Source: an uncultured Hyphomicrobiales bacterium
GTDB lineage: Bacteria > Bacteroidota > Ignavibacteria > Kapaibacteriales > UBA2268
Reading direction: 5' to 3'
Assembly: GCA_964498585.1 (NCBI GenBank)
Contig: CAZCHH010000003.1
Span: 9,333-73,332, forward strand
Length of the DNA: 64,000 bases
Shown: in pieces, positions 23,201 through 63,790 of the stretch
Position numbering within the stretch: position 1 is the stretch's first letter
Layout: each line of letters begins with the position of its first letter
Translations under genes and position numbers: made by a program
The notes under the pieces: model-generated
Seen by the model: only the letters and a program-made list of their open reading frames with translations
What the model was told of the DNA's origin: nothing
Database searches by the model: none

Positions 23201-23300
23201 TGTCATTCTGAAGCGTAGCGAAGAATCTCACAAGTCATTGCTAATATAGGACTTGATTCTCAGTCATGCTATCAACAAGTTGTTCGCATGACTTAAAATA
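23201..23300. repeat. MITE-like repeat element (tgtcattctgaagcgtagcgaagaatctcacaagtcattg... plus the 'caacaagttgttcgcatgac' palindrome)
   Basis: Shares TIR and core sequence with elements at 28787, 38481, 42300, 58860, 61080 and 63700. The 'caacaagttgttcg(c/t)atgac' part recurs at 54420..54445. Confidence 0.7.
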
Positions 23301-24418: not shown

Positions 24419-25243
24419 ATGAAAGAAAATATTATAAATTGTTTGGATAAAGGTTTTGTCAGGTTGGTGGACTCAATGGGTAATGACAGCTCAATTGTGC
24501 AGGCAGCCCGCGTTTCTTATGGAGAGGGAACAAAAACGAAGCGTGAGGACCGCGAGCTAATCCGCTATTTGATGAGACACCGCCATACTTCACCTTTTGA
24601 GATGGTAGAGTTTAAATTCCACGTTAAGCTGCCAATCTTTGTAGCACGCCAGTGGATTCGCCACAGAACTGCTAATGTAAATGAATATAGTGGCAGATAT
24701 TCAGAAATGAAAGACGATTTCTATATTCCCGAACCAGAGCAGGTGCGGATTCAAAGTTTGTATAACCACCAGGCAAGAGGCGAAGAGCAGATTTCAGCAG
24801 AAAAAACACTGGAAATCATTGAAACATTGGAAAACAGCCAGAAAAAACTATTTGCGGAATATCAGGATTTTCTTTCTCTAAATCTTGCACGTGAGCTTGC
24901 AAGGATTAATCTGCCGCTTGCAACATATACGGAATGGTATTGGAAAATCGACCTGCACAATTTATTTCATTTCCTTAAATTAAGATTAGATGCAACTGCT
25001 CAGTATGAAATTCGCGTTTATGGCGAGGCTATTTGCAAGCTAATCAAACCAATAGTCCCTACGGCTTTTGAAGCATTTGAAGATTTCATTTTAAATTCAA
25101 TGAATTTTTCCTCGCAGGAATTAAATGCTATAAAAAATGCAATTTCCTTTGAAAAACTTGATGATGAAGCTTTAAAATCAATTGGCTTTACAAACAGAGA
25201 AATATTGGAATTCAAAGAGAAAATAACAGTTTTACAAAAATAA
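24419..25243 (+). CDS. thyX: FAD-dependent thymidylate synthase
   Basis: ThyX motif 'RHRHTSPFEMVEFKFHVKLPIFVARQWIRHR'. The ORF could start at 24353, but that start overlaps trpS on the opposite strand, so the Met at 24419 is preferred. Confidence 0.85.
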   Translation: MKENIINCLDKGFVRLVDSMGNDSSIVQAARVSYGEGTKTKREDRELIRYLMRHRHTSPFEMVEFKFHVKLPIFVARQWIRHRTANVNEYSGRYSEMKDDFYIPEPEQVRIQSLYNHQARGEEQISAEKTLEIIETLENSQKKLFAEYQDFLSLNLARELARINLPLATYTEWYWKIDLHNLFHFLKLRLDATAQYEIRVYGEAICKLIKPIVPTAFEAFEDFILNSMNFSSQELNAIKNAISFEKLDDEALKSIGFTNREILEFKEKITVLQK

Positions 25244-25266
25244 TTTTAAATTTATCGGAGAAAATA

Positions 25267-25980
25267 ATGAAAGCAAAGATACTTTCAATTCTAATTCTAA
25301 TTTTTGCAGTAACCTATGCAAATTCACAAACTGCTGAAATGATTATCGGCAAGGCAATCAACGCTATTGGAGGCGAAAAATCCTTTAAAAATATTAATTC
25401 TGTTGAATATAATATGACTTTAACAGGTATGGGACAGGAAATGCCTATGAAATTCTATAAAAAAGGTGAAGATAAATTTCGTTTAGAGATGAACTATATG
25501 GGACAAGAAATGATTTCTGTCTTTAATGGAAAATCTGGTTGGACTAAAACTGCTGGAAATGTAATAGAAGTTCCTGAAGTTGCTTTAAATGAGTATAAAG
25601 AACAGTTAAAATCTCAAGTCGCAGCTTTTGATATGCCTTTTCTTAATTATAAGGAAAAAAATATTACCTTTGAATTAATTGGGGAAGAGCCAGTAAATGG
25701 CATAGATGCTTATAAAATTGAAGCTACTTCCGCTGATGGCAATTCTACTCTATATATTGAGAAAGCTACTAATTTACTAATTAAAGCTACTTCAGTTCAA
25801 AACATTAACGGACAAAATATTGAAGCTGATGTATATATGTCTGACTATAAATCAGTTGGTTCATTAAAAATGCCTCATAAAATTGAATTAAAAAGCAATG
25901 GCGAAAATTTAGTTAATATTGTATTAACTTCTTTAAAAATCAACGAAAATATTGATGACAGTTTGTTTCAAAAGCCATAA
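25267..25980 (+). CDS. secreted hypothetical protein (paralog A; same family as 27835..28575)
   Basis: Signal peptide 'ILILIFAVTYANSQTA'. The N-terminus and the C-terminus ('LKINENIDDSLFQKP') are near-identical to the paralog downstream of the E2 gene. Confidence 0.65.
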   Translation: MKAKILSILILIFAVTYANSQTAEMIIGKAINAIGGEKSFKNINSVEYNMTLTGMGQEMPMKFYKKGEDKFRLEMNYMGQEMISVFNGKSGWTKTAGNVIEVPEVALNEYKEQLKSQVAAFDMPFLNYKEKNITFELIGEEPVNGIDAYKIEATSADGNSTLYIEKATNLLIKATSVQNINGQNIEADVYMSDYKSVGSLKMPHKIELKSNGENLVNIVLTSLKINENIDDSLFQKP

Positions 25981-25994
25981 TTTGTGGAGTTATT

Positions 25995-27617
25995 ATGAAA
26001 ATTGATGTTGTTATGCCAAAAATGGGCGAATCTCTTCAGGAAGGCACTATTATTCGCTGGCTCAAAAATGTCGGTGATAAAGTGGAACGCGATGAAATGA
26101 TTCTCGAAATCTCTACCGATAAAGTTGACACTGAAGTTCCTTCCCCGGTAACTGGGGTAATTACTAAAATCCTTGCTCAAGAGCAGGAAACTGTTGAAGT
26201 CGGAAAAGTTATTGCAGAAATTGGAACTGATGCCGAAAATGCCGTTGTTGAAAAAACTGCTGAAGTCCCAAAGGAAATTATATCGGAAGCACAGCCAGTA
26301 AAACGGACAGAATCCGCTTCTTTATCTGCTGAAAATACAATAGAAGTTGTTATGCCAAAAATGGGCGAATCTCTTCAGGAAGGCACTATTATCCGCTGGC
26401 TAAAGCAAGTGGGCGACAAGGTAGAACGCGATGAGATGATTCTCGAAATTTCTACTGACAAAGTGGATACTGAAGTTCCAGCACCTGCCGGCGGAATACT
26501 TGTTGAAATTCTTGCTCAGGAAAAAGAAATAATCGAAGTAGGAAAAGTAATTGCAAGAATTGCAACTGGTGATACTCCTGCTATTTCTCAAACTGCTGTA
26601 TCTGAGCAAAAGGCAGTTGAGGAGCAAACTACTGAAATACCAGCAAGTTCCGGCAACAGGTTCTATTCGCCGCTTGTTCGTTCTATTGCTTCAAGCGAAG
26701 GAATTACCCTTGAAGAGCTTAATATGATTCAAGGCAGCGGTGCAGACGGCAGGGTAAACAAACAGGATTTGCTCAGTTTTATAGAACAAAAGAAGCAAAA
26801 ATTTTCTATTACTCCCCAGCCACCGAAATCGGTTGTTAAGCCGGAACCAGCCCAGCCGGTTAAAGTTATTAAGCCAGCAATTTCTCCTGTTCCACTTGGC
26901 GAAGATAAAGTAATTATTCCGATGGACAGGATCCGGCAAATCATTGCTGAACATATGATTTTCTCTAAAAAAACTTCTGCCCACGTTACAAGCGTTGCTG
27001 AAGCAGACGTTACTAATATTGTAAAATTCAGAGAAAGTTACAAAGACGAATTTCAAAAGCAGGAAGGATTCAAACTCACTTATACTGCTTTCTTTTCCAA
27101 AGCATTGATTGACGGAGTTAAGCAATTTCCAATGGTAAATGTAAGCGTTGAAGAAAAAAATATAATCCTTCACAAACGCATTCATCTGGGTTTTGCTACT
27201 GCTCTTGAGGACGGCAATTTAATTGTTCCGGTAATCAAAAATGCAGATAGCTTAAATTTAAGTGGCATAGCACGTTCAATATTCGATTTATCAAGCCGTG
27301 CAAGAAGCAAAAAGCTAAATCCCGACGACATTCAAGGCGGAACAATAACACTAACAAACGTTGGCACTTTCGGAACACTATTCGGAACACCGGTAATTAA
27401 TCAGCCGCAGTGCGCTATAATTGGAGTTGGTGCTATTCAAAAGCGTCCTGTAGTCCGCGAATTCAACGGTGAGCATCTGGTCGTTGTTCGCGATATGCTA
27501 TACGTTTCTATAACTTATGACCACAGGGTAATTGACGGTATGTTAGCCGGTCAATGCCTTGCTGCAATTACAAGAAATTTAGAAAGTATGAATCCGGAAA
27601 AAGAATTCGGTATGTAA
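25995..27617 (+). CDS. 2-oxo-acid dehydrogenase complex E2 component (dihydrolipoamide acyltransferase) with two tandem lipoyl domains
   Basis: Duplicated 'VVMPKMGESLQEGTIIRWLK.VGDKVERDEMILEISTDKVDTEVP' lipoyl domains, a peripheral subunit-binding domain 'SPLVRSIASSEGITLEEL...GSGADGRVNKQDL' and a catalytic 'DHRVIDG'. Confidence 0.9.
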   Translation: MKIDVVMPKMGESLQEGTIIRWLKNVGDKVERDEMILEISTDKVDTEVPSPVTGVITKILAQEQETVEVGKVIAEIGTDAENAVVEKTAEVPKEIISEAQPVKRTESASLSAENTIEVVMPKMGESLQEGTIIRWLKQVGDKVERDEMILEISTDKVDTEVPAPAGGILVEILAQEKEIIEVGKVIARIATGDTPAISQTAVSEQKAVEEQTTEIPASSGNRFYSPLVRSIASSEGITLEELNMIQGSGADGRVNKQDLLSFIEQKKQKFSITPQPPKSVVKPEPAQPVKVIKPAISPVPLGEDKVIIPMDRIRQIIAEHMIFSKKTSAHVTSVAEADVTNIVKFRESYKDEFQKQEGFKLTYTAFFSKALIDGVKQFPMVNVSVEEKNIILHKRIHLGFATALEDGNLIVPVIKNADSLNLSGIARSIFDLSSRARSKKLNPDDIQGGTITLTNVGTFGTLFGTPVINQPQCAIIGVGAIQKRPVVREFNGEHLVVVRDMLYVSITYDHRVIDGMLAGQCLAAITRNLESMNPEKEFGM

Positions 27618-27636
27618 ATTTTAATACTTTTTAAAA

Positions 27637-27672
27637 CTCCTTCTTAAGTTGCACTTGGGAAGGAGTTTTTTT
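27637..27672 (+). terminator. rho-independent terminator after the E2 gene (ctccttcttaagttgcacttgggaaggag plus T7); a second perfect 12-bp-stem hairpin lies at 27683..27714
   Basis: Inverted repeat followed by 'ttttttt', 20 nt after the stop. The second hairpin 'gaaggactccactttccccggtggagtccttc' has a T-run on the opposite strand. Confidence 0.65.
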
Positions 27673-28575: not shown

Positions 28576-28786
28576 TTTCATAGCTTCTGAATCTAGTGTA
28601 GTGATTTGTTAAAAGACTTACTATCTTGTTCATTCCGAACCCCCTGATAAAAAAGACTTTTATTTAAATAATGATGACATAAAGAGCTATCCCCCGCTGG
28701 CGGGGGACAAAGATGTCATTGGTAATCCCCTTAGAAAGCAAATGCTTTATTTAAATTGAGATGACAAAATTTTATACAGTCATTCT

Positions 28787-28862
28787 GAGCGCTGCGAAGA
28801 ATCCAGAAAAATTTCTTTAATCACTATTCTCTGGATTCTTCACTTCGTTTCGGAATGACAGT
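28787..28862. repeat. MITE-like element with perfect terminal inverted repeats (gtcattctgagcg ... cgtttcggaatgac) and internal inverted repeat (gaagaatccag/ctggattcttc)
   Basis: Direct reading. It is flanked by other family members (28640..28760: 'gatgacataaagagc', 'atgtcattggtaatcc'). Confidence 0.8.
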
Positions 28863-38480: not shown

Positions 38481-38563
38481 TGTCATTCCGATACGAAGTG
38501 AGGAATCTCAAATGTAGTGATAACAAAGATTTGTGAGATTTCTCGCTGCGCTTCGAAATGACA
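38481..38563. repeat. MITE-like element (TIR tgtcattccga/tcgaaatgaca; internal inverted repeat gaggaatctcaaa/tttgtgagatttctc)
   Basis: Direct reading. 'cccaagt(t)gcacttggg' hairpins lie at 38385..38411 and 38645..38673 on either side. Confidence 0.8.
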
Positions 38564-42130: not shown

Positions 42131-42504
42131 TTGTCTTGTAATTAATACTTGCACATATTATCCGAAAAAAGTGTTATTCTGAATCCCCTGATAAAGCAAG
42201 TGCTTTATTATAATGGAGATGACATAAGGTTTAGAAAGATTAGATGGTTTAGATAGTATAGGTTTTTAAACTTTCGTAAAGTTTTGCAAGACAAAAGTAA
42301 AGATGTCACTCATAGCCCATCGAAGAATCTCACAAGTCATTGTTACCAAAGAGTTGAGATTTTTCTAATGTAAAAATAAATCAAATATTTTATAAGCAAG
42401 TAACTTCATTAATTTTATGTAAAAACCAGAAAAACCTTTTATCAACTATAAGTTTAATACAATTTTCGTATTTTTGTATTTTTTGAAATAAAAATAAGTA
42501 AATT

Positions 42505-49431: not shown

Positions 49432-49515
49432 AAAATATTTTTAAAAAATTTAATCCACTAATAATATCTACTCAACTTTTCTAGTGTAATAATTCATTAA
49501 AAGACTTACTATTTG

Positions 49516-49830
49516 GTGTCATTCCGAAACGAAGTGAGGAATCTCACAACTCATTGTATCCACAGAACTTGAGATTCTTCACTTCGTTACCAATGACATC
49601 TTTTCTTGTCATTCTGACGGATGTCAGAATCCATCTTATTATTGTCCTGTCTTATTCGATATATGCTATCTTACGAAGCATTTGGGCTCGCCCAAATGTA
49701 ACAAGTGAGCAAGTTTACTTGCTTTCCTAAGATAGATTCTTCACTTCGTTTCAGAATGACACTTTTAGTTATGTCATTTCTATTTAAATAAAGGTCTTCC
49801 TTTATCTGGGGTTCAGAATGACAAAAAATT
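49516..49830. repeat. array of MITE-like and palindromic repeat modules
   Basis: Modules read directly: tgtcattccgaaacgaagtgaggaatctcacaa; gagattcttcacttcgtt; cattctgacggatgtcagaatc; cgaagcatttgggctcgcccaaatgtaacaagtgagcaagtttacttgc; attcttcacttcgtttcagaatgaca; aaataaaggtcttcctttatctggggttcagaatgaca. The same modules recur elsewhere in the window. Confidence 0.8.
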
Positions 49831-49853: not shown

Positions 49854-51242
49854 CTATTTTGAAAATCTGATAACTCCTTTGGGGCAGCCGACATAAGCAG
49901 TACCATCAGGAGCAATAACAATACCGGAGTAGTGATTATTATAAAAATACTCATCAGGCCCAGCTTTTTTTCTAAAAGCAAGTTCTCCGTTACTAGCTTT
50001 AACTGCAGTGAAATACCAGCCCTCCATATCCTTTGTATAAGTATATACTAAATCATTAACCGACGAATACTTGGAAATGAGGGAAGGAATAATTAAATTT
50101 GAAGTCCAGGCGATATTATAACTGCCATCTTTATTAAAATCAATTCTTGTTAAGCCGGGTTCTGAAAGCTTTCCAATAAAATCAACTACTTTTGTATAGC
50201 CGTAATTATTTTCAACAATAATGGAATTGTTAAATGCAATCAAAGAGTTTTCTGTAGCTGAAGCTCCGCTTGCAAACACAGGAACTTTGCACAGTAGCCG
50301 ATTAGAGCTAATCTGCTTCGCTCTTTTATAAACCAGGACATTCATTTGTGGCTCAGCATTATCGGTAATAGCAACGTAATCCTTTGAAATCAAAGTCGGA
50401 GTAGTCCCTGAACCTTGTGAAAACTGGCTTGGTTTCTTAACAGTTCCTCTATCATATTCTTCACGCCAGGAAATAACCGGTTTCCCATTATTATCAGAAT
50501 CTAACCTATATAAAGCATAATCAGATACGATAAACACACCACCAGTTTCATCAACTGCAAATGAATTAGCGATGGATTCTTTAACTTCAATATCAGAATC
50601 GAAATGTGATAATTGAACTGTATCTAATTTATTGCTGCTAACAATTCCCACAATGCCTTCTTCAGTAGCAAACCAAAGATTTCCATACCAGTCTGGTAAA
50701 GCAGATATTATGTGGCAGGGGTCCGGCAAAGAAGATAAATCATATTCATTTTCCAAAATAAATTTAGCTGGATTTCCTTCACAGCTTAATTTAAAAATTC
50801 GTTTATCTACAGTTGGAACGATAACTCTATAATTTTGGTCAAGATAGAAATATCCTGCACCTGATGGTGTTAAGTCAGTGCCTGTTGGAAGTTGATAGGT
50901 ATCAATTACTTCCAATGTCGTTGGTTCTAAAATATATAAGTTTCTTTTACTATCTGCACCTACTCCAAGAGTAACTAATTTGTTTTCTCTATTGAATGCA
51001 ATAGAAACACAAAGTTGATTTAAATTAGACATAGTGATATTCAGAATTTCACTATCAGGACCTTTTATGGAATAAGCATCTGTCATATATGCATCATTAT
51101 GGACATTACTTTTGCCGTTTGGTGCCATAAATGGATGAGTAGGGGCTGTCCAATCCATTTTGTTGTTAACTACATCAGTTGAATTTTCACAAGCAGCAAA
51201 TAAAAATGCAAAAACTAAAGCGAAAACACATAAATTCTTCAT
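49854..51242 (-). CDS. hypothetical lipoprotein (462 aa; probably a beta-propeller/beta-rich fold)
   Basis: Lipobox 'LFAACEN'. No recognisable catalytic motif. Confidence 0.6.
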   Translation of the reverse strand: MKNLCVFALVFAFLFAACENSTDVVNNKMDWTAPTHPFMAPNGKSNVHNDAYMTDAYSIKGPDSEILNITMSNLNQLCVSIAFNRENKLVTLGVGADSKRNLYILEPTTLEVIDTYQLPTGTDLTPSGAGYFYLDQNYRVIVPTVDKRIFKLSCEGNPAKFILENEYDLSSLPDPCHIISALPDWYGNLWFATEEGIVGIVSSNKLDTVQLSHFDSDIEVKESIANSFAVDETGGVFIVSDYALYRLDSDNNGKPVISWREEYDRGTVKKPSQFSQGSGTTPTLISKDYVAITDNAEPQMNVLVYKRAKQISSNRLLCKVPVFASGASATENSLIAFNNSIIVENNYGYTKVVDFIGKLSEPGLTRIDFNKDGSYNIAWTSNLIIPSLISKYSSVNDLVYTYTKDMEGWYFTAVKASNGELAFRKKAGPDEYFYNNHYSGIVIAPDGTAYVGCPKGVIRFSK

Positions 51243-51547
51243 AATTTATCCTATTATAAAGTGAATTTAGAAAATTATTATTTTCATTACATAGACAAAT
51301 CCTTGCTAGCAAACAATATTTGAGATTCCTAACTTAAAATGCTAAAGACTTATATATATTTACCTTTCAAAATCTTTACTAAAGTTAAAAATATAAACTA
51401 TTGTAATAATTCGTTAAAAGACTTACTATCTTGTGTCATTCTTCGCTCCGCTCAGAATGACAGAGTAAAATTATTTTCATTCACGAAACCTGTGGTTATG
51501 TCTTAGCACAATAACTTTACAATTATTTTTTATTGACGAAAACAAAA

Positions 51548-52279
51548 TTATTGTATTGATTGTTTATATGTATTTAATTGATTTATGCTAACAGCGTCAT
51601 CAACAGAATATTTCCCAATAACTGTTCTTCGCAAATCAAAGAGATAAGCTCCACAGCCGAGTTTTTCACCAATTTCATTAGCAATTGAGCGAATATAAGT
51701 TCCTTTTGAGCAGTCAATATCTAAATGAATAAAAGGTAAATCAATTTTATTGATGATGATGTTTTGGACATTTACAATTACTGGCTGGATTTCAACTTCT
51801 TTTTCTGCTCTTGCGTATTTATAAAGCCGTCTTCCATTAACTTTTTTTGCTGAAAAAATAGGTGGCTTCTGACTTATTTCGCCAATAAATGAAGACGTTA
51901 CTTTAATTATTTCATTTAAAGTGATTTGAGAAAAATCCTTAATGTTTTCTTCCGGAAATTCAGAATCGAAAGATTTGGTGGTTGCTCCTAATTTCAGAAC
52001 TGCAGAATATTTTTTTCCTAAATCCAGATAATTATTGATTTCCTTTGTTGCTTTCCCAAGTGCAAGAATAAGCAAACCTGTTGCCAGCGGGTCGAGAGTG
52101 CCGCAATGCCCGATTTTCTTAATATGAGTAATACCTCTCATTTTAGCAACAACGTCAAACGAAGTCCAATCTCTATCTTTATCAATCAATGCAAATCCAC
52201 CTGAAGCAGCTACATTTTCAAGCCATTCCGAAAAATTGCTAATAGTGTCTTTTGTTAAGAAATTTTCTTCGTTTATCAT
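51548..52279 (-). CDS. truB: tRNA pseudouridine(55) synthase
   Basis: 'GHCGTLDPLATGLLILALGKATK' TruB motif II with the catalytic Asp. Confidence 0.9.
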   Translation of the reverse strand: MINEENFLTKDTISNFSEWLENVAASGGFALIDKDRDWTSFDVVAKMRGITHIKKIGHCGTLDPLATGLLILALGKATKEINNYLDLGKKYSAVLKLGATTKSFDSEFPEENIKDFSQITLNEIIKVTSSFIGEISQKPPIFSAKKVNGRRLYKYARAEKEVEIQPVIVNVQNIIINKIDLPFIHLDIDCSKGTYIRSIANEIGEKLGCGAYLFDLRRTVIGKYSVDDAVSINQLNTYKQSIQ

Positions 52280-52623
52280 TGCTGCTCGCTTTTAATCGAA
52301 TCAATTAATTTTTGGATATGCTCCATTTCGTTCAAAGTATCGTCAAGGAAGAAACGAAGCTCCGGAACACGCCTAAGCCGCAATTTCGAAGCAATATGAT
52401 AACGGATTTGCTTATTATTTTCTTCTAATACTTCAATGAATTTTGGTGGAGAAATTTTGCCACCATAGACGCTTAAATATACTTTAGCAATTTGTAAATC
52501 CTTTGAAAGACGAACTGCTGTAATTGTTGCAAGACCCGCAGAATGCTCTGATGCTAAATCGCTTATTGGACTTACAAGAAATTTTTTTACTTCACTTGCT
52601 ACTTTTTCTGCTCTTATTGACAT
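52276..52623 (-). CDS. rbfA: ribosome-binding factor A
   Basis: 115 aa. 'RAEKVASEVKKFL...LRRVPELRF' is RbfA-like. It overlaps truB by 4 nt. Confidence 0.85.
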   Translation of the reverse strand: MSIRAEKVASEVKKFLVSPISDLASEHSAGLATITAVRLSKDLQIAKVYLSVYGGKISPPKFIEVLEENNKQIRYHIASKLRLRRVPELRFFLDDTLNEMEHIQKLIDSIKSEQQ

Positions 52624-52627
52624 CTTC

Positions 52628-52795
52628 TTTATAATTGTTAATTGTTAATTGTTAATTATTAATGGTTTATGGTTTATAGTTTATTGTTTATAGTTTATAT
52701 TGTAATTTAGTCATTAGTTATTGGTCATTTGTCATTAGTATTGTTTTCAAATTATCACTTATAATTAATAATTAATAATTAATAATTAATAATTA
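52628..52795. repeat. block of short tandem repeats: (TTAATTG)x4, (GTTTATR)x5, (GTCATTWGT)x3, (ATAATTA)x5 ending at the methyltransferase stop codon
   Basis: Direct reading of 'ttaattgttaattgttaattattaatggtttatggtttatagtttattgtttatagtttata...ataattaataattaataattaataattaataatta'. Confidence 0.85.
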
Positions 52796-54298
52796 TTTTA
52801 TCAGTAACTCAACATTTTCATATTTTCTTCCATTGACTGCTTTTTTAAATGTAGTATTGGTTACTCCGCCGGGTAAATGAACGTTTTTTCCCTGCAATAA
52901 TTGTTCAATCGTTAAGATTTGAATTTTATCTATTTTATATCCCATGAAATGACCCTGCTGCTTTGCTTTCTGAAGCATACCATCAGTTAAAAATTCTTCA
53001 AAGCAAACAAAGACAGCTAAATCTGCTTTTTTTCTTGCTGCAACTTCAATTATATAAGCAATATCACTAATTTTTACATTTCCGCTTTTAACTTCAATAA
53101 TTCCAATTCCTTTTTCCTTGTCATTTTTATTAAAAGTAAAATAACCATCGAAACCACTATCTGACGTCTTTTTTTCGTTAGAAACGCCACCGATAAGAAC
53201 TTCAATAACCCAATCCTGAAACTTAAAACGACCTTTCTTAGTTGACTGGGCAAGCTGGTATGCTGAAGCAATATCCTTTGGATAGCCATTGATTTCTATT
53301 TCAGTCAATAATGTTTTCTTGCTGTTTTCGTCAAGTGGATTAGTTAATCTATCTAAAATAAGTTTTATTGCAAGATGTGAAATGTCCACACCGAGCCAGT
53401 TCCGATTAAGTTTTTCGGCAACTGCAATAGTGGTTCCGCAACCACAGAAGAAATCAGCAACGACATCACCTTCATTGGTGCTCGCTTTGATAATACGTTC
53501 AAGGAGTGATTCAGGTTTCTGAGTAGGATATCCGAGACGTTCAATAGCAGATGGAGCTATTGGTTGAATTTGCCACCAATCATCGGGATGCTTTCCTAAA
53601 GAATGAAGTGTTTGCATTCCAAAATCACCGGATTTCCTTTTATTTCCAATATAATATTTGAAGCGTTCTATTGTTGCTGGTGCATATTCATCTCTAATAG
53701 AATCTAAATTAAACAAATAATTATAATTTTTAGAATATCGTAAAATAGTATCATGCCTACGTCCAAAATCTTTTTTAGGATATCCAGCACCTCTGTAGCA
53801 CCACACAATTTCATTCCTAAAATTCTTTTTTCCAAACAGATAATCGCAAACTAGCTTCAAATAATGGCTCATTGTCGGGTCGCAGTGCAAATAGAAACTT
53901 CCGGTATCTGTAAGCAACGATTTCATATAATAAACTCTATGAGCCATAGTAGTTAAATAAGCTGCTGCACTATGGTCTGTAATTTCAACGAGTTTTAAAA
54001 AATTGTATAAGTCCAATTGTTTATGCTCTAAAAGTTCATTCATAGAATCAATGTATTTAACATTGCTCCAAGTATCTGAGAATGCTTCTTTTTGCGCCTT
54101 TGTATCGCTCATATCTATGTCTTCAAAAAGAACATTATAATTTCTTTTTGAGTTAAATGGCGGGTCTATATAAATCAAATCAATAAAACCCTCTGGATGC
54201 TTAAAAGAAAGTTCTTTTAAAACATCAAGGCAATCTCCGAAGTATAGTTGTTTCATAATTAAGCTTTTATTTTTTCCGATTGTGGTTTGTATTGTCAT
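52793..54298 (-). CDS. beta-class DNA N6-adenine/N4-cytosine methyltransferase with a C-terminal PD-(D/E)xK-like domain; no partner endonuclease gene is adjacent
   Basis: Motif IV 'LIYIDPPFNS' near the N-terminus and motif I 'VVADFFCGCGTTIAVAE' later (beta order). The C-terminal ~150 aa contains 'GFDGYF...IGIIEVKSG', a D...E.K arrangement. Confidence 0.8.
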   Translation of the reverse strand: MTIQTTIGKNKSLIMKQLYFGDCLDVLKELSFKHPEGFIDLIYIDPPFNSKRNYNVLFEDIDMSDTKAQKEAFSDTWSNVKYIDSMNELLEHKQLDLYNFLKLVEITDHSAAAYLTTMAHRVYYMKSLLTDTGSFYLHCDPTMSHYLKLVCDYLFGKKNFRNEIVWCYRGAGYPKKDFGRRHDTILRYSKNYNYLFNLDSIRDEYAPATIERFKYYIGNKRKSGDFGMQTLHSLGKHPDDWWQIQPIAPSAIERLGYPTQKPESLLERIIKASTNEGDVVADFFCGCGTTIAVAEKLNRNWLGVDISHLAIKLILDRLTNPLDENSKKTLLTEIEINGYPKDIASAYQLAQSTKKGRFKFQDWVIEVLIGGVSNEKKTSDSGFDGYFTFNKNDKEKGIGIIEVKSGNVKISDIAYIIEVAARKKADLAVFVCFEEFLTDGMLQKAKQQGHFMGYKIDKIQILTIEQLLQGKNVHLPGGVTNTTFKKAVNGRKYENVELLIK

Positions 54299-54598: not shown

Positions 54599-55723
54599 AT
54601 GTTTGAATTAATAAAAACTGACACACATTCTAAAGCAAGGGCTGGCGTTTTGCAGACTGCTCACGGCGAAATCGAAACACCGATTTTTATGCCGGTTGGA
54701 ACGCAAGGAACAGTGAAAGCGATTGACCACCGCTCGTTAAAAGAAATTGGCTCGCAAATCATACTTGGCAATACATATCATCTTTACCTGCGTCCCGGAA
54801 CGGAAGTATTAAAGGAATTTGGCGGACTGCATAATTTTATGAACTGGGACAAGCCGATTCTTACCGATAGCGGCGGCTATCAGGTGTTTTCACTTCAGGA
54901 TTTGCGAAAAATTAAAGAAGACGGCGTAGAATTTAAATCGCATATTGACGGCTCAAAGCACTGGTTTTCTCCGCAAAAAGTAGTGGAAATCCAGCAGACG
55001 ATTGGCTCCGATATTATGATGCAGCTTGACGAATGTATCCACTATCCTGCTTCTTTTATAGATGCAAAGAAAGCAATGGAGCGTTCTGTCCGCTGGGCAA
55101 AAACATCGCTTGACTTCTTAAAAGAAACCCGCGACAATTACGAAACAAAGCAACACCTTTTTGCAATAGGGCAGGGGAGCGAATTTAAGGAATTGAGGAA
55201 AATCTGCCTTGAAGAAAACTGCTCGCAAGATTTCGATGGTTTTTCAATCGGTGGGCTTTCAGTCGGTGAACCAACCGAAATAATGTATGAAATAGTTGAT
55301 TTTTCAACAGATATAATTCCGAAAAACAAACCGCGCTATTTAATGGGAGTTGGCACACCAGAAAATATTTTGGAATCAATAGAAAGAGGCGTTGATATGT
55401 TTGATTGCGTGCTTCCTACGCGTAACGCCCGCAACGGACAGCTTTTTACAAGCAATGGAAAAATCAATATAAAAAATTCCAAATACAAATACGAAAAGAA
55501 ACCGATAGACGATAGCATTCCATCTTGGGCATCGAACAATTTTTCACTTGCCTATCTGCGGCACCTTTTCATATCTGGAGAAATATTTGGTTTGCTGTTA
55601 AGCACTTTCCATAACCTTGCTTTTTACCTTTGGCTAGTAAAAACAGCAAGGCAAAAAATCTTAAATGGAGAGTTTTTAAGCTGGAAAAAAGATTTTTTAG
55701 AGAAATATCGTTCAGAAGAGTAA
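54599..55723 (+). CDS. tgt: queuine tRNA-ribosyltransferase
   Basis: 'ILTDSGGYQVFSL', 'LMGVGTPE' and the zinc-site region. Confidence 0.9.
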   Translation: MFELIKTDTHSKARAGVLQTAHGEIETPIFMPVGTQGTVKAIDHRSLKEIGSQIILGNTYHLYLRPGTEVLKEFGGLHNFMNWDKPILTDSGGYQVFSLQDLRKIKEDGVEFKSHIDGSKHWFSPQKVVEIQQTIGSDIMMQLDECIHYPASFIDAKKAMERSVRWAKTSLDFLKETRDNYETKQHLFAIGQGSEFKELRKICLEENCSQDFDGFSIGGLSVGEPTEIMYEIVDFSTDIIPKNKPRYLMGVGTPENILESIERGVDMFDCVLPTRNARNGQLFTSNGKINIKNSKYKYEKKPIDDSIPSWASNNFSLAYLRHLFISGEIFGLLLSTFHNLAFYLWLVKTARQKILNGEFLSWKKDFLEKYRSEE

Positions 55724-61075: not shown

Positions 61076-61380
61076 AATGGTGTCATTCCGAGCGGAGCGA
61101 GGAATCTCACAAGTATTTGATACCACAAGAATAGAGATTCTTCACTTCGTTCAGAATGACATCTTTTCTTGTCATTCTGACGGATGTCAGAATCCATCTT
61201 GGAAAAGCAAGCGAGCTTACTCGCTTGATACATTTGGGCAAGTCCGAATGTATTAATGAAATAGCTAATATAGAATATCGACTGAACAAAAATAAGATGG
61301 ATTCTGACATCCGTCAGAATGACATATTTAGTGATGTCATCTTCATTTAAATAAAGGTCTTCCTTCATTGAGGATTCAGA
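61076..61380. repeat. array of MITE-like/palindromic modules (gtcattccgagcggagcgaggaatctcac; gattcttcacttcgttcagaatgaca; cattctgacggatgtcagaatc; gcaagcgagcttactcgcttgatacatttgggcaagtccgaatg; inverted cattctgacatccgtcagaat; aaataaaggtcttccttcattgaggattcagaatgaca)
   Basis: The same modules as at 49516..49830, in a partly inverted order. Confidence 0.8.
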
Positions 61381-63639: not shown

Positions 63640-63790
63640 ATCCGAACCCCCTTATAAAAGAAGACTTTTATTTAAATAGAGAATGACCGACAAAAGTAAA
63701 GATGTCATTGGTAACGAAGTGTTGAATCTCAAGTATAGATGTAACAATGACTTGTGAGATTCCTCGCTACGTCCGGAATGACATAATATA
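63640..63790. repeat. MITE-like repeat modules (aaaagaagacttttatttaaatagagaatgac; atgtcattggtaacgaagtgttgaatctcaag...cttgtgagattcctcgctacgtccggaatgacat)
   Basis: Shares TIRs and internal inverted repeats with the 38481 and 49516 elements. Confidence 0.75.

Follow-up and report, generated by a model that had tools for sequence, protein, structure and literature searches.

A beta-class DNA methyltransferase fused to a PD-(D/E)xK-fold domain as a candidate single-polypeptide restriction-modification enzyme

When a DNA methyltransferase gene stands alone among housekeeping genes and its product carries an additional C-terminal domain, does it encode a modification enzyme only, or a complete restriction-modification system in one chain? 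The question is raised by a gene in a 64,000-nucleotide stretch of contig CAZCHH010000003.1 (assembly GCA_964498585.1), which we call the window and to which all positions below refer unless another locus is named. An original prediction had placed an orphan beta-class methyltransferase with a fused C-terminal PD-(D/E)xK-like domain at 52793-54298. The open reading frame (ORF) at these positions is real and unbroken (501 amino acids (aa), ATG start, from the ORF list), but it had to be reassigned to the minus strand. Judging from its sequence, we see an even chance that the product is a solitary, single-polypeptide restriction-modification enzyme, in which the protein's own nuclease domain would do the cutting.

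Domain architecture and the recognition cassette

The larger part of the protein is a methyltransferase. Pfam family PF01555 (N6_N4_Mtase) matches aa 39-314 with E=7e-47 (160.6 bits vs. a cut-off of 26.7), and the fold is circularly permuted: motif IV (IDPPFNS, aa 44-50, 54149-54169), which contains the DPPF catalytic loop (aa 45-48, 54155-54166), is followed by a variable recognition region at aa 163-256 and then by motif I (FFCGCGTT, aa 283-290, 53429-53452). Because motif IV precedes motif I, the order is that of the beta class, as had been proposed. The N-terminal catalytic half (motifs IV-VIII; aa 15-162, 53813-54256, minus strand), which begins at the probable start residue M15, is matched by PF01555 and aligns with residues 96-255 of EcoP15I Mod; the C-terminal half of the fold (motifs X and I-III; aa 257-325, 53324-53530, minus strand) includes the FFCGCGTT that binds S-adenosylmethionine. 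D-P-P-F-N-S-K is invariant in 104 aligned homologues, and F-x-G-C-G-T of motif I is likewise invariant among the aligned homologues. By sequence the nearest solved relatives are M.RsrI, M.MboIIA and EcoP15I Mod, and by fold the methyltransferase matches these three and M.BceJIV. Similarity to Type III enzymes is clearest over aa 17-196 (EcoP15I Mod, E=5.6e-14; the Type III Mod 6k0w, E=1.1e-14), and the whole protein matches the PADLOC model MTase_III with E=1.8e-50. Since motif IV reads DPPF, the target base is probably N6-adenine; the best NCBIfam matches are adenine-specific families, all far under their cut-offs.

A linker of low conservation and lower predicted local distance difference test (pLDDT) score (aa 326-337, 53288-53323, minus strand) leads into a PD-(D/E)xK nuclease-fold domain of the Mrr_cat/FokI-like kind (aa 338-480, 52859-53287, minus strand). 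The original prediction had drawn this domain at about aa 350-501; its nuclease-like part starts somewhat earlier, at about aa 338, and the last ~20 residues of the protein are predicted to be disordered. An AlphaFold model of aa 326-501, built on 104 homologues (mean pLDDT 84.5), places E366 (53201-53203) in the first helix of the nuclease fold, D384 (53147-53149), the 'D' of PD, at the opening of the second core strand, and E402-V403-K404 (the ExK, 53087-53095) at the end of the third. In the model, this layout is the textbook PD-(D/E)xK arrangement. The D-x(n)-E-V-K arrangement quoted earlier for this region is present within the motifs G382-F-D384-G-Y and I-I-E402-V-K404-S-G.

Profile matches to the domain are weak in this protein and stronger in its relatives. 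Over aa 361-449, NA-iREase1 scores 18.3 bits and Mrr_cat 16.8 bits (PF04471, cut-off 21), both below threshold; in family members aligned over the whole domain Mrr_cat reaches 22-42 bits, and it passes the Pfam threshold in 10/10 shorter relatives tested and in two further full-length fusions. These matches and the model together bear out the proposal of a fused PD-(D/E)xK/Mrr-like domain, and the C-terminus does not model as a target recognition domain (TRD), a role that belongs to the central region. A search of the PDB with the C-terminal sequence profile gave only a weak match to Rpb5 (E=0.047). The full-length model (pLDDT 80.6) retrieved only ordinary beta-class methylases from the PDB, with no solved structure covering both the methyltransferase and the C-terminal domain, and only ordinary methylases came from a viral fold library.

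The catalytic positions are strongly conserved. E366 is found in 119/120 close homologues, D384 in 120/120 (and in 145 of 150 diverse representatives), E402 in 118/120 and K404 in 119/120. Moreover, E366 is present in 94% of E402-bearing sequences and in <15% of the groups with Q or S at that position, so the two glutamates co-vary. The ratio of nonsynonymous to synonymous substitution rates (dN/dS), measured against orthologues and paralogues, is 0.05-0.09 in the nuclease domain and 0.00-0.08 in the methyltransferase core. The E...D...ExK signature is thus complete and under strong purifying selection.

In contrast to its flanks, the central TRD (aa ~163-256, 53531-53812, minus strand) is hypervariable. 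Mean pairwise identity among the 120 homologues and the query is 70% for aa 15-160, 74% for aa 257-325 and 55% for the nuclease domain, but 34% for aa 163-256, and in many homologue pairs both flanks are 93-99% identical while the centres share only 22-39%. The same holds for closely related genes: a same-locus orthologue and tandem paralogues have flanks that are 93-97% identical and recognition regions that are ~36% identical. The orthologue, in a related Kapaibacterium metagenome-assembled genome (MAG; locus L002), runs on into rbfA-truB at 85% DNA identity, and positions 53530-53728 of the window have no counterpart that blastn can align in L002 or in the tandem copies of L001, although the DNA flanks are 85-94% identical. 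Five loci carry two copies in tandem (L001, L003, L005, L006 and L034); in the two where neither copy is truncated (L001 and L003), the copies are almost the same at their ends but differ in the centre. With only the recognition region as query, a homologue search gave no more than five short fragments; the distribution of the cassette was measured instead among homologues already collected. Recognition-region exchange is likewise known among alleles of Type III mod genes (PMC3467074). Such cassette swapping is typical of restriction systems, not of regulatory methylases with a fixed specificity.

The window protein's cassette also occurs on other frameworks. Four methylases from Alphaproteobacteria, Poribacteria and Ichthyobacteriaceae (L040, L043, L056 and L047) are 72-79% identical to it over aa 163-256 and only 38-43% identical over the N-terminal catalytic core. 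In L040 and L043, the slot of the Mrr-like domain is taken by an HNH domain with intact CxxC and DH...N motifs (PF01844, 51-58 bits vs. 21.4), and in L056 by a T5orf172/GIY-YIG-type domain (PF10544, 35 bits vs. a cut-off of 20). L047a aligns with L056 over the same C-terminal motifs, and L047b, its tandem partner with a different recognition cassette, scores 44 bits with PF10544 against the same cut-off of 20. All of the HNH fusion's best 120 relatives share its architecture (120/120), and the HNH-fused family shows cassette mosaicism too. Because PD-(D/E)xK, HNH and GIY-YIG-type domains, three unrelated folds best known as nucleases, interchange on one methylase framework, it would be hard to explain the slot other than by a role in cutting DNA. 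It is these relatives with the same cassette that lead us to favour the 'self-contained modification-plus-cleavage enzyme' suggested earlier, for which we infer the nuclease activity.

Such an enzyme could work as follows. The central region would bind a short, specific DNA site, and the methyltransferase would keep that site methylated on the cell's own DNA. In most enzymes of this kind, the PD-(D/E)xK domain is a sequence-non-specific cutter tethered to a separate recognition module; here, the tethered nuclease would cut incoming unmethylated DNA next to the bound site, much as Type IIS/IIG enzymes do. Beta-class methylases and Type III Mod act as dimers, as the window protein probably does too, and a dimer would bring two nuclease centres together to make a double-strand break. 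Specificity would be renewed by exchange of the central cassette among alleles, tandem copies and unrelated frameworks.

Solitary occurrence and the competing readings

The gene has no partner in the window or at related loci. Its neighbours, confirmed by Pfam, are tgt (54599-55723, plus strand) on one side and rbfA (52276-52623) and truB (51548-52279), both on the minus strand, on the other, and tblastn with Type III Res proteins and a small PD-ExK nuclease as queries found no match in the whole 64 kb window. In this sense the gene is an orphan, with no res or endonuclease gene adjacent, as had been stated, but it does not behave like a housekeeping methylase of fixed specificity, given its hypervariable recognition region. 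Clustering of the neighbours at ~60 fused-family loci gave no recurrent partner gene. At ten diverse loci the immediate neighbours are unrelated (ftsZ, a gatA-like amidase, aspS, gcvH, a fabG-like short-chain dehydrogenase, TonB-dependent receptors and hydrolases), and no Res gene adjoins any fused-family locus examined. A Res-like helicase is a neighbour only of distant relatives that lack the nuclease domain (35-42% identity; 12 loci among L062-L080).

Some of these distant loci have a distinctive layout. In L062, L066, L070, L076, L077 and L080, a Mod-like methylase without a fused nuclease is followed in most cases by a ~670-aa Res-like helicase, and the helicase in turn by a separate ORF of ~115 aa that contains a PD...E-V-K motif (e.g. 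L062 6166-6516). From their sequences, these loci look like Type III systems whose Res has been split into a helicase gene and a nuclease gene.

The fused family itself is large. The homologue search returned at least 8000 full-length matches, of which the best 120 are 468-584 aa long and mostly carry precomputed PF01555 with NA-iREase1 and/or Mrr_cat. Hosts include Ignavibacteria, Kapaibacteria, Bacteroidota, Cloacimonadota, Zixibacteria, Spirochaetes, Deltaproteobacteria, Patescibacteria and others. When the C-terminal domain was used as a profile by itself, 2307 clusters at 50% identity matched (979 at E<=1e-10), with the domain nearly always at the C-terminal end of the protein. Shorter matches of ~200-300 aa were considered as stand-alone nucleases; seven of the ten tested keep part of PF01555 and are fragments of fused genes, and the other three, of ~190 aa, show nuclease-fold domains only and are either stand-alone proteins or fragments.

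Some isolated temperate phages also carry full-length homologues (Marinitoga phage MPV1, mycobacteriophage Dori and Streptomyces Likavirus phages). There the fused gene directly adjoins the repressor or integrase, the place in which defence genes expressed from prophages usually sit. Two more homologues (P0042 and P0056; loci L088/L089 and L092) lie at the edge of Mu-like prophages. At these loci a Mu-like early region (transposase, MuB-like AAA_22 ATPase, Gam and GemA) ends with the fused methylase gene, and a LexA-like repressor gene and then host genes (uppS, bamA) come after it, which suggests carriage by small Mu-like elements in Bacteroidota-like genomes. The single-subunit restriction system of mycobacteriophage Panchino (gp28) was considered as a family member and rejected, as it is described with Type I-like R, M and S domains.

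We favour restriction-modification because 118-120 of the 120 closest homologues retain the active-site residues E366, D384, E402 and K404, because dN/dS is as low in the nuclease domain as in the methyltransferase core, and because unrelated HNH and GIY-YIG-type domains replace the nuclease domain in the same slot. The reading also draws on a recognition region that diversifies as it does in restriction systems, on the invariance of DPPFNSK, which self-protection would demand, on the solitary gene with no recurrent neighbour, and on the phage copies beside repressor or integrase.

Several observations weigh against it. The Mrr_cat score of this protein stays under the Pfam cut-off (16.8 bits vs. 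21), its top C-terminal Pfam match is to NA-iREase1, a family whose name marks it as inactive, and no PADLOC defence model matched the C-terminal domain by itself. Of the 150 diverse representatives, 61 have S at position 402, 51 have Q and 36 have E (K404 is kept in 147), and E366, which accompanies E402, is mostly absent from the wider fused family. Because the ExK glutamate is S or Q in about three quarters of these representatives and E366 is mostly missing, catalysis may not be the function across the whole fused family. Q-x-K is the configuration of Mrr, however, and S-x-K with a displaced acid is that of Cfr10I-type enzymes, so such variants neither prove nor exclude activity. Among the replacement domains, T5orf172 is no proven nuclease. 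Finally, the gene sits stably among housekeeping genes, with synteny near truB/ribF partly kept in a related Kapaibacterium genome, and this position would equally fit a long-resident regulatory methylase.

The protein could then be a solitary methyltransferase and nothing more, with a C-terminal nuclease fold that no longer cuts and has an accessory, non-catalytic DNA-binding role like that of CcrM's C-terminal domain. We regard this main rival as rather unlikely, though it has an analogue: in CcrM, a solitary beta-class methylase, activity needs an extra C-terminal domain, which binds the non-target strand (PMC6787082). That domain, however, has a different, SAND-like fold. A best Pfam match to a family described as an inactive restriction-endonuclease fold, and a wider family in which the ExK glutamate is mostly S or Q and the helix glutamate is missing, are what a non-cutting domain would lead one to expect; yet pure DNA binding would need neither four catalytic positions kept in 118-120/120 close homologues nor glutamates that co-vary, and relatives swap in HNH domains with an intact zinc-binding and catalytic motif, or GIY-YIG-type domains. 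Solitary protective methylases are common in phages, in which full-length homologues do occur, and public annotations label these proteins methyltransferases, but the hypervariable recognition region is unlike that of regulatory methylases with a fixed specificity.

An active nuclease might also serve another end than restriction at its own unmethylated site. It could act selfishly to spread or retain the gene, as in homing or post-segregational killing, nick DNA for cassette recombination, or attack foreign modifications as Mrr does; we consider this improbable. HNH, GIY-YIG and PD-(D/E)xK are also classic folds of homing endonucleases, and such behaviour would be in keeping with a gene that is inserted singly, at 50-60% identity, in many phyla and unrelated contexts, and with the tandem arrays of swapped cassettes. 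Post-segregational killing is, however, a property of ordinary restriction-modification systems and no separate mechanism, and the sole DNA-reading module is the methylase's recognition region, so cutting would be directed there anyway. Although the domain belongs to the Mrr catalytic family, the entire N-terminus is methyltransferase, with no modification-sensing domain such as the winged helix of Mrr. The 'methylation-reading effector' that the original prediction had offered as its other option is therefore unsupported: the Mrr catalytic part is present and the methyl-sensing N-terminal domain of Mrr is absent.

It is very improbable that the gene is a leftover Type III Mod subunit whose Res partner has been lost or lies elsewhere in the genome. 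The N-terminal half does align with EcoP15I Mod and other Type III Mod proteins, 12 loci among the nearest relatives without the nuclease domain (L062-L080, 35-42% identity) have a Res-like helicase gene after the methylase, and both allelic exchange of recognition regions and tandem mod genes are Type III habits (PMC3467074; Mbo45V preprint). Nevertheless, there is no Res-like sequence in the 64 kb window and none adjacent at any fused-family locus, and thousands of proteins keep the fused architecture under purifying selection, as a decaying remnant would not.

Taking restriction-modification as the preferred reading, we tentatively extend it to the family, at somewhat less than an even chance: the window protein would be one of a widespread class of single-protein restriction-modification enzymes, uncharacterised by experiment, whose Mod-like beta-class framework has a swappable cassette and a swappable C-terminal slot for PD-(D/E)xK, HNH or GIY-YIG-type domains. 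Such enzymes would cut beside their methylation site without a helicase, and they are found in many bacterial phyla as well as temperate phages. An active nuclease would make this a compact restriction-modification layout that differs from the characterised Type IIG families, with thousands of natural members and modular parts (recognition cassette and nuclease type). Many genes now listed as 'DNA methyltransferase', or as orphan methylases in methylome and defence-system surveys, would be relabelled. An active nuclease would also explain why such solitary, hypervariable genes lie among housekeeping genes and in prophage lysogeny modules, and it would provide enzymes with new specificities and shifted cleavage. 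With an inactive nuclease, the family would still show clearly that a methylase has recruited a nuclease fold as an accessory domain.

Start codon, neighbourhood and repeats

The ORF (52793-54298, minus strand; stop codon 52793-52795) includes a 14-codon N-terminal extension (MTIQTTIGKNKSLI, 54257-54298) that is shared with no homologue and is probably untranslated. Because all homologues, near-identical genes of related genomes included, start at the residue matching M15 (MKQLYFGD), the true start is probably the ATG at 54256 (codon 54254-54256), which gives a protein of 487 aa. The gene's GC content is like that of its surroundings.

Pfam assigns tgt, yajC and recN on one side of the gene and rbfA, truB and ribF on the other, with an unassigned 462-aa protein among the latter. 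The gene of this protein (49854-51242, minus strand) separates truB from ribF, two genes that lie side by side in a related Kapaibacterium genome (L086); the predicted product has no Pfam match and begins with a hydrophobic stretch followed by a cysteine, resembling a lipoprotein signal. Elsewhere, the first or second gene downstream of the fused methylase is aspS in L013, L028, L033, L043 (HNH-fused) and L044, whose labels span at least three phyla. With tgt and rbfA-truB adjoining the gene in the window, and pnp in a Kapaibacterium genome, a translation-related neighbourhood recurs, which may be coincidence.

A related Kapaibacterium MAG (L004) contains a second copy of the fused methylase (72% identical), located ~5 kb from a region (L004 1-3241) syntenic with window positions 24451-27672. 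The corresponding part of the window (24.4-27.7 kb) has no methylase copy; thus, copy number and location vary between close relatives.

Between the stop codon and rbfA lies a tract of heptamer tandem repeats (52634-52795, found with Tandem Repeats Finder), which may not belong functionally to the gene. Nearly all of the 170-bp spacer consists of heptamers, (ATTGTTT)x9.3, (TTAGTCA)x4.7 and (ATAATTA)x5, the last of which overlaps the stop codon, and in L001 this repeat spacer is found again upstream of the first of the tandem methylase copies. Changes in repeat number might alter expression of the downstream gene. An identical protein is encoded on nine public contigs, and all four short-read contigs listed among them (L081-L084) end 24 nt past the stop codon, inside the heptamer spacer, which suggests that assembly breaks at the repeat spacer or at a tandem gene array. 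Because close relatives carry tandem copies, the single copy in the window could be a collapsed tandem array, and the locus is perhaps not single-copy in the real genome.

The window also contains a dispersed intergenic element of ~80-120 bp with an internal inverted repeat (GTCATTCCGAAACGAAGTGAGGAATCTC ... GAGATTCTTCACTTCGTT). Counting partial as well as full ones, it has at least ten copies there, at 49481-49598, 63703-63783, 61078-61161, 51398-51441, 28593-28639, 38481-38510, 23201-23240, 28834-28860, 49734-49762 and 42322-42365. Copies occur in related MAG contigs as well, and the element has the look of a repetitive extragenic palindromic (REP) sequence or a miniature inverted-repeat transposable element (MITE). 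MAG labels such as 'Hyphomicrobiales' for L001, L003 and L007 look unreliable because the DNA of L001 and L003 is 79-94% identical to the Kapaibacteria-like window over conserved gene parts, and the window's short intergenic repeats recur in these MAGs.

Comparison with known systems

No published description of this methyltransferase-nuclease fusion was found in the open-access literature, and a survey of the PD-(D/E)xK superfamily, a survey of archaeal restriction-modification and a paper on Haloferax HVO_A0006 do not treat the architecture. Domain databases and REBASE-derived models clearly hold these proteins already, as 'methyltransferases'.

CcrM resembles the window protein in being a solitary beta-class adenine methylase with an extra C-terminal domain that contacts DNA, and the methyltransferase folds are similar. 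We had considered whether that domain might be nuclease-like; its structure is SAND-like (PMC6787082), unlike the PD-(D/E)xK fold here, so CcrM serves as a functional analogy only. The two proteins also differ in how they read DNA, since the recognition region described here is a swappable cassette that differs even between same-locus orthologues. The specificity of CcrM is fixed (GANTC).

Mrr, a Type IV enzyme, shares the catalytic domain, but its N-terminal winged-helix domain, which senses modified DNA, is lacking in the window protein, where the region before the nuclease is a methyltransferase; the motif is QxK in Mrr and ExK here. The Mrr-like nuclease domains of the Type ISP enzyme LlaBIII and of AF1548 are among the closest systems, with the difference that the Type ISP helicase is lacking here.

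Likeness to the Type III Mod proteins (EcoP15I Mod, Mbo45V Mod) extends to the beta-class adenine methyltransferase, the recognition domain in mid-chain, and a similarity in sequence and fold that is strongest in the N-terminal half. Replacement of the recognition domain between conserved ends and the possibility of tandem mod genes are also shared. Unlike Type III systems, the window protein has no Res helicase-nuclease partner and has a small nuclease domain of its own, and as it lacks an ATPase, any communication between sites could not be driven by ATP.

Under the restriction-modification reading the protein would work like a Type IIG/IIS enzyme. In Type IIS modules such as the FokI cleavage domain, the R.BspD6I small subunit, N.BspD6I and PaqCI, however, recognition is the task of a DNA-binding domain, not of a methyltransferase, and the host is protected by a separate methylase. 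No PADLOC Type IIG model is among the best 25 of the 69 matches to the whole protein. The Type IIG/IIC enzymes (the MmeI, BpuSI and Eco57I families) do combine nuclease, methyltransferase and specificity in one chain with no partner gene, as the window protein would. In the characterised Type IIG families, as far as is known, a PD-ExK nuclease stands at the N-terminus, followed by a methyltransferase of the gamma class and, at the C-terminus, the recognition domain, whereas here a beta-class methyltransferase with a central recognition domain comes first and the nuclease fold closes the chain.

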